A stretch of DNA of 64,000 nucleotides from a virus (IMGVR_UViG_3300028423_000861:1-64000); one strand, 5' to 3'. Shown: positions 31,158-44,285, counted from the stretch's first letter. Translations and numbers: made by a program. Notes: generated by a model from the sequence alone, not told the origin.

Positions 31158-31424
31158 TTAGTCGGATTCAACTGCACCGGTTTTTGGAAAGCATTGCATT
31201 CCAGCCGGATGTGTCTGTCCCCAAGCCATAACACAAGTCATACCTTGTGCTGTTACTGGCGTCCATTCATAAACACGAACATCGAGACCTTTGGTTTCAA
31301 CTCGATAAGCCGCATCGGGTTCTTTGGGTTCAAGACCGGCATTTTTGCTCCAGGTCCAGAGATCAGCATGTGCTGCGGTTGCCATGAAAATAACAGCAAC
31401 GGCAATAATTGAGAGTAGTTTCAT
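31158..31424 (-). CDS. Small secreted protein
   Basis: Signal peptide MKLLSIIAVAVIFMATAAHA; paired cysteines. Confidence 0.7.
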   Translation of the reverse strand: MKLLSIIAVAVIFMATAAHADLWTWSKNAGLEPKEPDAAYRVETKGLDVRVYEWTPVTAQGMTCVMAWGQTHPAGMQCFPKTGAVESD

Positions 31425-32647
31425 TCCAGTTCTCCTTGGTCATCATTGATTTGAGGAAGGCCAAGAAACTCGGCCAACTCCAGGTATTTCCTGGTGTTAC
31501 CCAGGTTCTTGCGAACATGCTCCATGAGCAAGTCATTCAAGTCCTTGCCATCAGCATGTGCAAACACGAAGCGCCACTGGCGCTGGTCGAGGTCCGATGC
31601 AGGAAGAACTTCCGTAGCAAGACGCTTGCGGTCACCCTCTGCATCCGTGATCAAGTCGTTGACTACTTGGTCAAGTTCAACCAGCTTCTCGTGATACAAG
31701 CGATGGAAGTCACGCTCGTATTGCTTGACACGCTCGTAGTCACGTTCGTCGAGGTGCGGATAAACGTCGTCCAACTCGTTCTCGAGCAAGAGAGCAAGGA
31801 TGTGACGATCCGTGCGAATCTTGTCCTTGACCTTGTGGATACGCACATACCAGTCATTCTTGACTTTGACAGCGTGACCGTCAGCAAAGCGTATGATGTC
31901 ACCCTCACGACCTTCCGATTCACGCTGGCGAGCAACGTATTCTTCTAGCCCGCCGTCGACTGAGCCATACTCGGGAACTTGAGTAATGCCCCGGGGAATG
32001 CTCGTAATTGAATCTTCGCGATACTCCGGAAACGGAATATAAAGACCATTGCGATTATTGCGCAGTGCAAGAAGAACCAGGTCCGGTTCTTCATACTCGA
32101 TTACAATTTGGTTTTTTGGCGACACGTATTCAAACAGCGGCGTGATACCAGCTGCGATCATGCGCTGCATCCAAACAGTAATTTCGGCAGCATCTGACCG
32201 AGACAGGAGATATTCCAGTGCTTCCTCGGCAACGTCAGTGACGCCCATTTTAGTAGCAAGCTGGATACGACCGTCGAGATAAAGCGGACGCACCATTGAC
32301 CCGTCCATCTTTTCCATGATCACATGCGGCTTGGACATGTCAAGGTTGTGAAGCTGAGTTTCCTCGCGCTCACTAACATTGAAAAACTTGTGGAAGGGAC
32401 GGCTCATGATGTCGCCGTTTACATCAAAAATCAGGCCGCGGCACTCACGACGCATGATTCCCTTGGGGATCATTTCACCATGATTTTCCATGAGATCGTT
32501 TTCATCGATGTCAAACGTGTCTGCATAACCAACATTGTAGTTGATCACAGTATAACGATCACGCTCGGCTACGACGAACTCGTCGCGGTCTTGGATAGCC
32601 GGCAGCACATCTTCAATGCGCTCGATGATAGGAAATTTATAATGCAT
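31421..32647 (-). CDS. RNA ligase 1 (T4 RnlA/gp63-like)
   Basis: RRECRGLIF, RPFHKFFN, EKMDGS adenylation motif, FEY, EGDII, VKVKNDWY. Confidence 0.93.
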   Translation of the reverse strand: MHYKFPIIERIEDVLPAIQDRDEFVVAERDRYTVINYNVGYADTFDIDENDLMENHGEMIPKGIMRRECRGLIFDVNGDIMSRPFHKFFNVSEREETQLHNLDMSKPHVIMEKMDGSMVRPLYLDGRIQLATKMGVTDVAEEALEYLLSRSDAAEITVWMQRMIAAGITPLFEYVSPKNQIVIEYEEPDLVLLALRNNRNGLYIPFPEYREDSITSIPRGITQVPEYGSVDGGLEEYVARQRESEGREGDIIRFADGHAVKVKNDWYVRIHKVKDKIRTDRHILALLLENELDDVYPHLDERDYERVKQYERDFHRLYHEKLVELDQVVNDLITDAEGDRKRLATEVLPASDLDQRQWRFVFAHADGKDLNDLLMEHVRKNLGNTRKYLELAEFLGLPQINDDQGELE

Positions 32648-40883: not shown

Positions 40884-41447
40884 TTAACCTTTTCCGAACA
40901 TCGCAGCGGCCTGATTGCGATCAACCATATTGCCGTAGATGTCGAAATACATCACGCGATTAAAGCCCTCATTCTGGCTAGGCAAATCAAAGCTATTGCG
41001 CATGGACTTCATAACAAAATCCGGAATGTCCTTTCCAGAACGCCCTTCAAGACGTCGCTGTAGTTCGTCCTCTTGTTCTTGATTGAATGGGGGGAGAATG
41101 CAAACACATTCCAACCGATATTCCTTGGGAAACCGGTTGATAATCTTGCGACGCTTCTTAACAGTCATGTTGGTTTGGTCCCACAACACATTCTGCTTGC
41201 GAGCGATCGCATCATCTACTTCCTGGTTTGCAATTTGAGTTGCAACTTTGGCGTATTCTTGAAAAACCTCGCTGTAAGTTTTGCCCATTTCAGCAGCATA
41301 AGCATCGATACGATCGTCTGTGCTGTAAATGTGGCTATCACGTGCTGATCCCGTAGCAATGGCATTTGCACGAGCAGTGCTTTTGCCGCTCGCCGGAAGT
41401 CCAACGAGAACGACTACGCTGGGTCTTTGATCATTCGCTTTGTTCAT
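40884..41447 (-). CDS. P-loop kinase (AAA_33, polynucleotide-kinase-like)
   Basis: LVGLPASGKST, YSTDD, WDQTN..VKKR, EGF. Confidence 0.88.
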   Translation of the reverse strand: MNKANDQRPSVVVLVGLPASGKSTARANAIATGSARDSHIYSTDDRIDAYAAEMGKTYSEVFQEYAKVATQIANQEVDDAIARKQNVLWDQTNMTVKKRRKIINRFPKEYRLECVCILPPFNQEQEDELQRRLEGRSGKDIPDFVMKSMRNSFDLPSQNEGFNRVMYFDIYGNMVDRNQAAAMFGKG

Positions 41448-41527: not shown

Positions 41528-41915
41528 TATGAAAGACATATACGTTGAAAAATTTTCAGCGGTGCTAGACGAGATCCATACGTTCAAGGATTGTCCAAGA
41601 ACAAAAATATATGTTTCGTGTCTTTTAGCTGATCATGTAGAACGAACAGGATTTTTTACTGAACCTGTCGGACTTCGTTACATGGATCTCCAAACATCAA
41701 CACATGCAAAAGAATTGGGTGACAATTGTCTTGTTCTTGTAGGTATTTTTCCTGGTTATCGTGGAATGCCAGATGATTATTATATAGAAATCGGTCGTGG
41801 AAGTTATGGTATGGCTGCGAGTGTTACTGGAAGTGATGTGTTTGAAATACTGGCAAGAGATTTTGATATTATACGCAGAGGATTAAATCAACTGCGCCCG
41901 CCAACTTTCTTGTAA
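41528..41915 (+). CDS. Hypothetical protein, opposite strand (start approximate)
   Basis: LGDNCLVLVGIFP...YYIEIGRGSY. Confidence 0.65.
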
Positions 41916-42166
41916 CTAATGCCTTTGGAATTGAGATATTTTTCAAACTCTTGTTGTTCTTCATTCGAGTAAAAACTCACCATAGCATTATCATTTACTT
42001 CATTGTAGCTATTGGTTCCTGAACGAAATTCACGCATGAGCTTGGTAAGTTCATAAGGTGTCATTTCAAGACTGAGCATACGTTCTGATTCAATCTGTTG
42101 TTCCTGTTGATCAGGCTCCAGATGATCATACTGACCCTCATTCAAAATATCAAGATATTTTCTCAT
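41888..42166 (-). CDS. Small late protein
   Basis: ATAAATA upstream; MRKYLDILNEG start. Confidence 0.6.
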   Translation of the reverse strand: MRKYLDILNEGQYDHLEPDQQEQQIESERMLSLEMTPYELTKLMREFRSGTNSYNEVNDNAMVSFYSNEEQQEFEKYLNSKGISYKKVGGRS

Positions 42167-42258
42167 AAATTCGCGTGTCATACAAATATTTATCGTCATA
42201 AAGAAACCGTTACCCTGATTGGATAACGGCTTCTTTTAATTCTATATCTTACTCTATT

Positions 42259-42467
42259 ATGCCCCTGGCGATGAGAGCTTCTAACATGTATTCTGTGGCC
42301 CTAATATTATACGTATCCTAAATCTATTTATCGATTCATCATCGTCGCATTGTTAAATCCTAATACTTGAGGTTGATGATATTTTCTATTTTATTCTATA
42401 CTAAGTCTAATCTCTGATTGTAACCACTACCGTTTGTATTTCTAAGTTTGATCGCCGGCGTGGACAT
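42259..42467 (-). ncRNA. Putative UAG-rich ncRNA closed by a terminal helix
   Basis: 5' AUGUCC..GGCGAU pairs with 3' AUCGCC..GGGCAU; 11 UAG in the enclosed A-rich loop; follows tRNA-Ala; terminator-like hairpin at ~42201-42236. Confidence 0.55.
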
Positions 42468-42520
42468 CTGATGTTTACTGTTTTACCTGTATGATATAAT
42501 AAACGATCAAACCGAATATA

Positions 42521-42595
42521 TGGTGGAGACTAAGGGAATCGAACCCTTAACTTCGCCGTGCAAAGGCGACGTGTTCCCGTTAGCACCAAGTCCCC
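42521..42595 (-). tRNA. tRNA-Ala(UGC)
   Basis: Cloverleaf, G3:U70 pair, anticodon loop UUUGCAC, encoded CCA. Confidence 0.97.
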
Positions 42596-42646
42596 ATAAC
42601 GTGTTTCTATTTATAACTTAGCACCAATTCACTGTTGTTTCAATCA

Positions 42647-42970
42647 TCAATCTTCATTCAGAGTGTCTTGGTTATCCTGATTATCTGGTTCAGGCAATTC
42701 TCCGGTATCGGCAAAATACTGTAGTGCGGGCAATAACTCTTTAACCATCTTTTGACTAAGGTGCATTCGTGAATGAATGACTGCACCTTCAGGCAATGTA
42801 ACGCTCCTCCATCCTCCATCTATCATCACGTTGATTTCCGGATCTCTTATCCCCAACCAAACAGCATCCAACGTAGCTAAACTGGATTTTTGTAGACTAC
42901 ACTTATTACCATATAAATCGTCAAACTCTGTAATGATAAATCCTCGTTCGGTTTGTCTGGTTTCTTTCAT
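42647..42970 (-). CDS. Hypothetical phage protein
   Basis: FDDLYGNKCSLQKSSLAT..AVWLG...RMHL. Confidence 0.75.
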   Translation of the reverse strand: MKETRQTERGFIITEFDDLYGNKCSLQKSSLATLDAVWLGIRDPEINVMIDGGWRSVTLPEGAVIHSRMHLSQKMVKELLPALQYFADTGELPEPDNQDNQDTLNED

Positions 42971-43401
42971 TAAAACAATTCCAATTCGATTCCAGCTTCC
43001 TTACACATCATACGTGTTGCATCGAAGCTATCACCAAAACGTTCCTTGAGTCCTTCTCCTGGCTCTGTTGTAACAATACGCTTGATGCCAGCTTGAATAA
43101 GAAGTCCTGCGCATGAACTGCATGGGTGTTGTGTAACGTATGCTGTAAACCCTTCAAGAGGCTCTCGTGCGCTGGAAATGGCATTTGCTTCAGCATGTTG
43201 GACGAGCAAATATTTAAGAGAGCGGTCATTATACCGTTCACTATTATCATTTACACCACGGGGAAAACCATTATAGCCTACACTGACTACGATCCGATTA
43301 TGGTTTACAATAACACATCCGACTTTGGTGCTTGGATCTTTTGACCATGCAGCAATATGGTCTGCGAGGTCAAGAAATCTTCTATCCCATTTTGTAATCA
43401 T
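42970..43401 (-). CDS. dCMP deaminase
   Basis: SKDPSTKVG, GYNGFPRG, HAEANA, PCSSC. Confidence 0.95.
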   Translation of the reverse strand: MITKWDRRFLDLADHIAAWSKDPSTKVGCVIVNHNRIVVSVGYNGFPRGVNDNSERYNDRSLKYLLVQHAEANAISSAREPLEGFTAYVTQHPCSSCAGLLIQAGIKRIVTTEPGEGLKERFGDSFDATRMMCKEAGIELELF

Positions 43402-43418
43402 AATTTTCCTGGAAGTTA

Positions 43419-43517: not shown

Positions 43518-44198
43518 CTAAATGCTATACTTGAGAATGTCAAGTGCTTGGTTGTATTCATCGCGCTTTTTTTGTTTTTCTTCTTCAGTCAAAAGAGGAG
43601 CGCCAAATTCATAGTGATTAAGTTGGTCGGTATCAATATCAAAGAACTTCACACCTTGCTTGAAATGATCATATGTGAGGCCTTCCTGGTAATCCACATG
43701 CAACAGCTTCCATTCAACATTGCGTTCTAGGCGATTGCGGTTGCCGTCACTGTTGCTATCTGGCCCCCAGAATTCGTTTAGCCAAGTCAATCCTGGATCA
43801 TCATCAATAATTAGTGCACGACTGTTTTCTGGCAAATAGTCTTCAACATGTGTAGCAACGTCGTGAACTCTTTCCGAAGTAAGACCTCTCTTAACACAAG
43901 TTGGCTGATCTGCATATTTGAATTCCAATCCTTGATCATCAAACATTTGTTGAATACGTTCAATACTAACCCAGGACCTCCAATTGGTAACGAGAACAAT
44001 TTCTGCATCGCCATATTTTGCTAAGAGGTTGTGTGCACGGACCGAGAATGGGTCAAATATTGGCTGCACTTCATCCAATATTTCTTCAAGAGGACCCATG
44101 TCGCTGAATCGATCAATGAACCGCCTGTTTTCCGGAAAAAGGTAAGATTTTCCTGGAAGGAGAGGTCCATCGATGTCAATAAACATGAAGTTTTTCAT
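43518..44198 (-). CDS. HAD domain protein (HAD_SAK RNA-repair-like)
   Basis: FIDIDGPL, IVLVTNWR, IIDDD, EGLT; true start MKNF after the tRNA. Confidence 0.8.
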   Translation of the reverse strand: MKNFMFIDIDGPLLPGKSYLFPENRRFIDRFSDMGPLEEILDEVQPIFDPFSVRAHNLLAKYGDAEIVLVTNWRSWVSIERIQQMFDDQGLEFKYADQPTCVKRGLTSERVHDVATHVEDYLPENSRALIIDDDPGLTWLNEFWGPDSNSDGNRNRLERNVEWKLLHVDYQEGLTYDHFKQGVKFFDIDTDQLNHYEFGAPLLTEEEKQKKRDEYNQALDILKYSI

Positions 44199-44209
44199 AT
44201 ATTGTCCTT

Positions 44210-44285
44210 TGGTGCCCCATGTGGGATTTGAACCCACGCACTCAAGATTTTAGAGATCCTGGCTCTACCGCTGAGCTAATGGGGC
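44210..44285 (-). tRNA. Amber suppressor tRNA (anticodon CUA)
   Basis: GCCCCAU UA GCUC AGCGGUA GAGC C AGGAU CUCUAAA AUCUU GAGUGC GUGGG UUCAAAU CCCAC AUGGGGC A CCA; 76 nt. Confidence 0.9.

Follow-up and report, generated by a model that had tools for sequence, protein, structure and literature searches.

Companions of tRNA genes in the transcripts of large phages are poorly charted. The stable RNAs C and D of phage T4 (also species 1 and 2) are non-coding molecules of approximately 120-140 nucleotides (nt) that lie among the tRNA genes, are co-transcribed with them, and have tRNA-like ends cut by the tRNA-processing enzymes; we know of no function for either. In Escherichia coli, the 3' trailer of the glyW-cysT-leuZ tRNA transcript yields the sponge 3'ETS-leuZ, an RNA of approximately 50 nt that ends at the operon terminator and base-pairs with small RNAs. 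Here we examine the minus-strand RNA of a spacer at 42200-42520 (321 nt) in the viral DNA IMGVR_UViG_3300028423_000861. The window analyzed, positions 1-64000, is the first 64 kb of a 142-kb IMG/VR record with an estimated completeness of ~60%. Within this spacer, a first-pass annotation had singled out 42259-42467 (209 nt) as a UAG-saturated non-coding RNA closed by a terminal clamp.

Two further groups of RNAs are pertinent to this locus. Theta ribozymes are minimal ribozymes of the hepatitis delta virus (HDV) type that lie next to phage tRNAs and for which a role in processing the tRNA 3' trailer has been proposed; 95.5% of their associated tRNAs have no encoded CCA, and the phages are predicted to infect Bacteroidota and Bacillota (PMC10879173). 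The bar minigenes of phage lambda, in the work cited in PMC2490762, consist of a Shine-Dalgarno (SD) sequence, an AUG, few if any further codons and a stop, and take effect through ribosome loading; the CreT RNA toxins (PMC8501985) and the Start-Stops of E. coli (10.1101/520783) are additional minigene or start-stop RNAs.

We propose that 42200-42520 on the minus strand is the 3' trailer of a phage tRNA transcription unit, carrying an uncatalogued RNA module with probable ribosome engagement, and that its richness in UAG is a by-product. For this reading as a whole we regard the case as evenly balanced. Its anatomy, namely a promoter-tRNA-trailer-terminator unit with covarying helices and a conserved ribosome-binding site followed by an immediate stop, appears quite likely from the comparison of relatives, and its mechanism, in which helices H0 and H1 insulate and a minigene loads ribosomes, is offered as a tentative suggestion that we doubt somewhat more than we believe. 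The element is of interest as an uncatalogued fold, supported by covariation, that sits exactly at a tRNA 3' end and is combined with a conserved single minigene in the tRNA trailer.

Predicted transcription unit and its relatives

The spacer lies between a tRNA-Ala gene and a terminator-like hairpin, on the strand that carries nearly all genes of the record. The features that delimit the predicted unit are as follows.

42608-42615, minus strand: TATAAATA box, a T4-type late-promoter motif 12 nt upstream of the tRNA-Ala (genome-wide motif count and relatives)
42521-42595, minus strand: tRNA-Ala(UGC) with encoded CCA, the start of the transcription unit (ARAGORN; Rfam tRNA, 55.6 bits)
42200-42236, minus strand: intrinsic-terminator-like hairpin of 16 base pairs (bp) with a UUUCUUU end (fold; covariation in relatives)

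Transcription of the unit would start from the TATAAATA box ahead of the tRNA. Its position upstream of the unit and its strand-specific distribution in the genome qualify this box as a predicted late promoter of the T4 type: the octamer occurs 13 times on the minus strand of the record and once on the plus strand, several copies are found just before tRNAs, a further copy immediately precedes tRNA-Thr, and a box stands 12-17 nt ahead of the tRNA in four of the five loci that include upstream sequence. At the other end, the hairpin that the first-pass annotation had noticed beyond its stretch is present and is conserved in the relatives (94.9% of cells paired, with 5 of 14 pairs altered on both sides). 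As a stable, G+C-containing hairpin with a U run at the end of the unit, it has the features of an intrinsic (Rho-independent) terminator. A simple terminator scan did not list it, in our reading because the U run is part of the stem and the hairpin thus falls outside the rule of a T run after the stem.

The stretch is non-coding. Each of its three frames contains TAA or TGA in addition to TAG, so that none is open even when TAG is read through, and the earlier statement that it is not a single recoded ORF (open reading frame) holds. The same annotation had regarded the stretch as an element of RNA type, in agreement with its conservation in relatives, its lack of coding capacity and its position behind a tRNA and ahead of a terminator on the strand that is transcribed.

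No close DNA relatives were found in phage GenBank records or in IMG/VR. Pattern and protein scans of IMG/VR gave no relative of the 97-amino-acid (aa) ORF that adjoins the spacer and no match to the 5' arm of the proposed clamp; they yielded one non-syntenic relative of a 107-aa ORF, the terminator-plus-promoter of an unrelated phage, and distant ORF homologues without the element. Homologues of the 97-aa ORF with 55-94% identity are present in metagenome assemblies, and their contigs carry the same spacer. An nhmmer profile of the element has one match in this genome and a match in every close relative, with E values of 1e-34 to 1e-72, and seven distinct versions are available: the window, L003, L004, L010, L020, L006 and L009, to which L024 was added as an eighth for the minigene count. 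The tRNA preceding the element is Ala in the window and in L006 and Thr in L004, L010 and L020; in L003 and L009 the end of the contig truncates it. The profile did not detect the element in L008 or L024, the latter retaining only the minigene, the TTGTTAGAA block and the layout of terminator and promoter, and the element is missing next to distant homologues of the 97-aa ORF (40-45% identity), which are preceded by coding DNA. In the window stretch no Rfam covariance model matched, whether at the gathering score or at E <= 10, and in six relatives none matched at E <= 1. From these comparisons the stretch belongs to an uncatalogued RNA module of ~320 nt that is conserved in the seven diverged versions and is always placed directly after a tRNA, whether Ala, Thr or another.

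The surroundings of the module vary among relatives. In the window, a cassette at 42596-43418 comprising dCMP deaminase, the 107-aa ORF, the late promoter and tRNA-Ala separates tRNA-Thr from the element; in L006 this cassette is present minus the 107-aa ORF, and L004, L010 and L020 are without it, their element directly following tRNA-Thr. The trailer sequence directly after the tRNA is homologous in layouts with and without the cassette. In L008, which is the most distant of the syntenic relatives, the element is replaced, between tRNA(CUA) and a 96-aa ORF, by an 83-aa ORF (L008:2631-2882) that has a Shine-Dalgarno sequence of its own. An origin of the element as a decayed gene was considered and rejected, as the 83-aa ORF of L008 has no similarity to it (tblastn, best E 0.3).

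Helices of the module

The structured parts of the module, in order along the minus-strand RNA, are given below.

42503-42516, minus strand: 5' strand of helix H0, which starts 4 nt after the CCA end (pairs with 42440-42455)
42456-42463, minus strand: 5' strand of helix H1 (CCACGCCG), adjoining the 3' strand of H0 (RNAalifold consensus helix)
42440-42455, minus strand: 3' strand of H0, inside the H1 loop (duplex energies, permutation test)
42424-42432, minus strand: 3' strand of H1 (CGGUAGUGG) (fold, RNAalifold, covariation)
42279-42423, minus strand: unstructured A-rich middle, rich in UAG, UAUAG and AUAGA and holding most of the UAGs of the first-pass annotation (no consensus structure)
42261-42278, minus strand: H3 hairpin (GCUCU ... 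GGGGC), with 42274-42278 pairing with 42261-42265 (RNAalifold)

The three local helices identified with RNAalifold, H1, H3 and the terminator, together have 92.3% of their cells paired, with nine pairs changed on both sides. None of 500 shuffles reached the observed paired fraction, and slid controls gave 39-51%. Individually, H1 is paired in 87.8% of cells and carries compensatory changes in L020 (CCAUUCC/GGAAUGG) and L009 (CACAAUUG/CAAUUGUG), and H3 is paired in 91.4% of cells, with two of its five pairs changed on both sides.

Helix H0 did not emerge from the alignment, in which MAFFT places its strands out of register, and it was for this reason evaluated by duplex-energy controls instead of pair counting. 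It comprises 13-14 bp of different sequence in each lineage, starts 2-4 nt after the CCA in six members, and pairs with the first ~15 nt of the H1 loop. In the window the duplex energy is -14.8 kcal/mol, compared with -6.8 +/- 2.2 kcal/mol for shuffles, and six of the seven sequences have duplexes of -14.8 to -22.4 kcal/mol (p <= 0.006 per sequence versus shuffles). In six of seven relatives the 5' segment also pairs with no other part of the element better than with its H0 partner. Every 5' strand finds its strongest pairing in the 3' strand of the lineage it comes from, and the cognate assignment of strands is the best of 120 permutations (-95.7 versus a mean of -60.1 kcal/mol). As the strands follow in the order H0-5', H1-5', H0-3', H1-3', the topology is that of a pseudoknot. 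Because H0, H3 and the terminator contain G-U pairs, the helices can form only in the minus-strand RNA. Over this 5' domain, L004 and L010 are identical at 94 of 94 positions; at the third codon positions of the next gene the identity is 74%.

A domain of this kind could be a processing RNA, self-cleaving or guiding an RNase, that releases the tRNA 3' end in the manner of theta ribozymes by means of another fold. It starts 2-4 nt past the tRNA, is the most constrained part of the element and has a pseudoknot topology, and ribozymes are known from precisely this position next to phage tRNAs (PMC10879173). However, no Rfam ribozyme matches it, its strands follow an order other than that of the HDV-like fold, H0 greatly exceeds P1 in length, the CCA that 95.5% of theta-associated tRNAs are without is encoded in the present tRNAs, and few invariant unpaired nucleotides are visible. 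On this evidence a processing RNA seems quite improbable. We give similarly little credence to a bolder pair of proposals, in which either the trailer would be a trans-acting late RNA that engages ribosomes through a strong, open ribosome-binding site and start-stop-like minigene set in stop-dense, UAG-rich RNA and that, with the amber suppressor tRNA, senses or titrates termination and decoding capacity late in infection, or the 5' pseudoknot would be a new tRNA-releasing processing RNA.

A conserved minigene in the middle

The A-rich middle contains a short translation signal.

42357-42362, minus strand: Shine-Dalgarno-like UAGGAU (core AGGA), 7 nt ahead of the AUG (conserved in 8 relatives)
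42339-42350, minus strand: minigene AUG CGA CGA UGA (SD, AUG and early stop in every relative)

All eight sequences, L024 included, have at the homologous place an SD core (AGGA, GAGG or GGAG) that precedes an AUG by 7-10 nt, and in all eight the AUG is followed by zero to two further codons, for a total of one to three sense codons, and then by UAA or UGA. The minigenes of the relatives read AUG AAC UGA (L003), AUG UAA (L004 and L010), AUG AAA AGG UAA (L020), AUG CUC UAA (L006 and L024) and AUG GUU UAA (L009). An SD 5-10 nt before an AUG, with few codons and a stop, is the layout of a minigene or start-stop, and the locus is assigned to this layout from its sequence. An SD core of this kind precedes 45% of the ORFs of the phage, compared with a background of 7.6%.

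The principal alternative is a purely cis-acting spacer, whose helices serve only tRNA 3'-end processing and termination and insulate the next, separately promoted gene, whose middle is neutral filler, and whose UAGs and SD-AUG combination are accidents of A/U-rich drift. In its favor, the middle is without consensus structure and has a divergence close to that of third codon positions, the UAG positions are unconserved, minigene-like motifs occur at chance level genome-wide, and the succession of terminator and late promoter is a generic one that is found in an unrelated phage as well. Nevertheless, the combination of SD, AUG and early stop recurs at the same relative place in eight of eight diverged sequences, and shuffled middles carry it in only 5-11% of trials per sequence. 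In addition, the middle has retained its length, and H1 and the AUG their spacing (72-83 nt in the seven members with H1); in a genome as compact as that of a phage, 200 nt of mere spacer should tend to become shorter. We consider a spacer acting purely in cis unlikely, although it deserves serious attention.

Proposed role of the trailer RNA

In the reading that we prefer, a tRNA trailer with a ribosome-engaging module, the H0/H1 domain would set off and insulate the 3' end of the tRNA for processing and would afterwards cap the 5' end of the released trailer, with the terminator hairpin capping its 3' end. A ribosome loaded on the start-stop-like minigene in the open A/U-rich middle would then allow the released RNA to act or would stabilize it. 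The abundance of UAG would be a by-product of the low-complexity words UAUAG and AUAGA. If this is correct, in that the knot directs release of the tRNA or the minigene loads ribosomes, the module would offer a handle on phage tRNA maturation and on how phages manipulate translation late in infection.

Several observations weigh against this proposal. The structural support comes from only seven distinct sequences of one narrow clade, L009 has no detectable H0, and H0 and H1 could be two alternative folds instead of a pseudoknot. Minigene-like motifs in the non-coding DNA of this genome are at chance level (4 versus 4.6 expected), so that it is conservation on which the case for the minigene rests. 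The codon after the AUG is not conserved (CGA CGA, AAC, none, none, AAA AGG, CUC, GUU and CUC), and for this reason no tRNA-specific mechanism is indicated. Finally, UAG, along with UAUAG, is still the most over-represented word of the family, which the by-product interpretation explains only loosely.

UAG content and the proposed clamp

The 11 UAG triplets (plus-strand CTA) that had been reported in 42259-42467 are all present at exactly the listed positions, split 4/4/3 over the three frames, and two additional CTA at 42242 and 42254 bring the spacer to 13. This density is the maximum over all 209-nt windows of the 142-kb record (13 versus 10 for the next best), and the spacer ranks first among 57 intergenic stretches, with 40.5 UAG per kb compared with a mean of 15.2. 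Base composition alone predicts 6.6 UAGs and dinucleotide-preserving shuffles of the spacer give 8.9 +/- 2.2 (p = 0.048). The comparison with shuffled and intergenic sequence that had been named as a check thus upholds the stretch as the densest of the record but reduces the excess to a modest ~1.5- to 2.7-fold, depending on the null.

Among the relatives, the p values against dinucleotide shuffles range from 0.02 to 0.35, UAA equals or exceeds UAG in four of six, and the enrichment fades in the more distant members. Family-wide, relative to base composition, UAG is the most over-represented triplet (TAG, 91 versus 44.8) and is carried by UAUAG (TATAG, 27 versus 4.7) and AUAGA (ATAGA, 25 versus 6.4). 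Any given UAG of the window is shared, at its alignment column, by three of six relatives at most, and six of the 13 recur in none. The triplets are not preferentially unpaired either, with unpaired probabilities of 0.36-0.62 compared with 0.37-0.48 for the remainder. As shuffles explain 8.9 of the 13, positions are unconserved and there is no unpaired preference, the UAGs appear to be mostly a by-product instead of selected sites: the count is real and probably follows in the main from A/U- and purine-rich low-complexity sequence.

The clamp fared less well than the count. Its arms, AUGUCCACGCCGGCGAU (42467-42451) and AUCGCCAGGGGCAU (42272-42259), read as described and do pair in the minimum-energy fold of the isolated 209 nt. 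That fold has a z score of +0.36, however, and 120 of 200 shuffles fold equally well. In the full spacer the clamp is absent from the minimum-energy fold, and forcing it costs 4.7 kcal/mol. A conserved terminal helix in homologs had been proposed as a check, and its 13 pairs form in 52.8% of cells over seven relatives, which is the level of shuffled (97 of 500) and slid controls. The 5' arm corresponds to the 5' strand of H1 plus the start of the 3' strand of H0, and the 3' arm to the loop and 3' strand of H3, so that the use of both arms by conserved local helices is among the reasons that the clamp is not supported. The loose likeness to Ro-binding stems of Y RNAs also finds no support, as there is no Rfam match and no conserved end-to-end stem and TROVE was not found in the 142 kb.

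These results bear on the earlier proposal of a UAG decoy or sponge, in which an end-clamped RNA presents UAGs to a codon-specific RNase, to RF1 or to an RNA-binding protein, or works with the amber suppressor. The genome-maximum density and the standing of UAG, UAUAG and AUAGA as the most enriched words of the family speak for it, as do the window copy with 13 UAG and no CUA and the synteny of the suppressor tRNA. Seven of the 13 UAGs are UUAG, and UUAGR is complementary to U33-A37 of the suppressor loop CUCUAAA; the relatives, however, favor AUAG over UUAG (48 versus 29). Against display as decoy sites stand a clamp that is neither conserved nor favored, sites that have neither positional conservation nor a single-strand preference and lie in a middle without consensus structure, and an excess over dinucleotide content that is small in each sequence. 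Moreover, a UAG is read by RF1 and by ribosome-dependent RNases only when it occupies the A site, and ribosomes have no frame that would carry them across these UAGs; neither TROVE nor RtcB was found in the 142-kb record. The trailer RNA is probably not a UAG decoy, and we rate that explanation as very unlikely.

The stretch could alternatively act as DNA, as a cluster of promoter-like boxes, a set of protein-binding repeats or an origin. It is A/T-rich with repeated short words, and the window copy has one extra GATAAATA box at 42325-42332. The words TATAG, ATAGA and TTAGR, however, have no strand bias and form no other cluster in the genome, late-promoter-like boxes are not enriched, the internal box is unconserved, and the helices contain G-U pairs and covary as RNA. 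A DNA-level element is accordingly given hardly any weight here. Decoy late promoters were rejected on similar grounds, as boxes within 2 mismatches of TATAAATA are not enriched. The extra box lies 7 nt past the minigene stop and is confined to the window copy, the relatives having CTAAATA at its place; it may be a lineage-specific internal late start.

This locus illustrates how a conspicuous number of one triplet in an A/U-rich spacer can stem largely from composition and can hide functional signal in helices and a ribosome-binding site.

Downstream gene and genomic context

Beyond the terminator, the module is followed by a promoter box and a gene.

42187-42194, minus strand: GATAAATA box, then exactly 5 nt, then the AUG of the next gene (same layout in all relatives)
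41888-42181, minus strand: 97-aa ORF of no known family, always adjoining the element (homologues P0001-P0009, alignment A2)

The gene after the box is probably a separate, leaderless late unit, as judged from this layout. At 42179-42194 of the window, NATAAATA, the late-promoter motif reported for T4-like cyanophages (PMC2984593), is followed by exactly 5 nt and an AUG without a Shine-Dalgarno sequence, and this arrangement is kept in all relatives of the 97-aa ORF. An ATAAATA end lies 5 nt ahead of the first ATG at eight of 185 crude ORFs, with a sharp peak in the spacing histogram, which suggests a class of leaderless late mRNAs. The 97-aa protein has no Pfam or PHROG family and no Atlas match, and its AlphaFold model is poor (predicted local distance difference test, pLDDT, 60.5).

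The phage is T4-like. Its record encodes T4-type topoisomerase II subunits, a clamp loader and an Rnl1-like RNA ligase, together with 46 tRNAs (ARAGORN). Genes related to tRNA function in the vicinity are listed below.

44210-44285, minus strand: tRNA with CUA anticodon, of the amber suppressor type, as context only (ARAGORN; Rfam, 61.6 bits; loop CUCUAAA)
43518-44237 of the window: HAD_SAK_2 domain protein, between tRNA(CUA) and tRNA-Thr (domain match)
40884-41447 of the window: PNK-like kinase, AAA_33 (domain match)
31421-32647 of the window: Rnl1-like RNA ligase (domain match)

The CUA tRNA was confirmed at the reported 1.7 kb upstream, and it is syntenic in all relatives that reach that far. 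It coexists with the standard code, with TAG terminating 15 of 164 crude ORFs (~9%) of the record. Recoding of TAG was rejected, since long ORFs become no longer when TAG is read as glutamine. Outside the window, ARAGORN reported at C1:82498-82569 of the record, among its 46 tRNAs, one that is not assigned to a type and whose anticodon entry has four letters (ttag).

The kinase, the HAD_SAK_2 protein and the ligase make up a T4-style tRNA-repair set that is scattered around the tRNAs. The suggested link of the stretch to a suppressor and RNA-repair genes stands to the extent that these three and the amber suppressor are nearby. The search of the 142-kb record did not find RtcB, and TROVE (PF05731) was not found, with positive controls, in a record that is only an estimated ~60% complete.

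Comparison with known RNAs

The theta ribozymes and the present element share a pseudoknotted RNA directly 3' of a phage tRNA, in phages with amber suppressor tRNAs. The placement also agrees, as theta ribozymes lie within ~5 nt of the tRNA 3' end and H0 begins 2-4 nt after the CCA in six members. The architecture is different. The theta/HDV motif is a nested double pseudoknot of P1, P2, P3 hairpin, P1', P4 and P2' with a catalytic C in J4/2 (PMC10879173), which is not found here; the present order is H0-5', a variable stretch, H1-5', H0-3', a loop and H1-3', and H0 has 13-14 bp compared with the 7-bp P1 of theta. The present phage is T4-like, in contrast to the theta phages with their predicted Bacteroidota and Bacillota hosts, its tRNAs encode CCA, and there is no HDV-type Rfam match.

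The element differs from T4 RNAs C and D, with which it was compared by description only, in having no CCA end and no tRNA-like arm, in its length of ~320 nt, and in its terminator, pseudoknot and minigene. With 3'ETS-leuZ it has in common an RNA from the 3' trailer of a tRNA transcript that is closed by a terminator. Sponges of the CsrB/RsmZ type carry many copies of one motif, and here there are 13 UAGs, with family counts relative to base composition of 91 versus 44.8 for UAG and 27 versus 4.7 for UAUAG, but with p values of only 0.02-0.35 per sequence versus dinucleotide shuffles; such sponges also keep the copies in a conserved structural context, which the UAGs here do not have. Y RNA and YrlA, which act with Ro, have a conserved stem between 5' and 3' ends with a Ro-binding bulged helix that has no conserved counterpart in the present element, and the common point is restricted to a non-coding RNA near tRNA and RNA-repair genes.

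The minigene resembles lambda bar, CreT and the Start-Stops in that an RNA from which no protein is made carries an SD and an AUG that is followed, after a few codons at most, by a stop. Minigenes that sequester a tRNA, as in lambda bar and CreT, need a particular (rare) codon before the stop, and the varying codons here do not indicate such a mechanism. Unlike the known systems, the present minigene has one copy only, its codon after the AUG is unconserved and is absent in two members, and it rides in a tRNA trailer behind a predicted pseudoknot. Considered against these systems, the element would represent a further variety of the phage tRNA-linked non-coding RNAs, known so far from seven sequences of one narrow clade.

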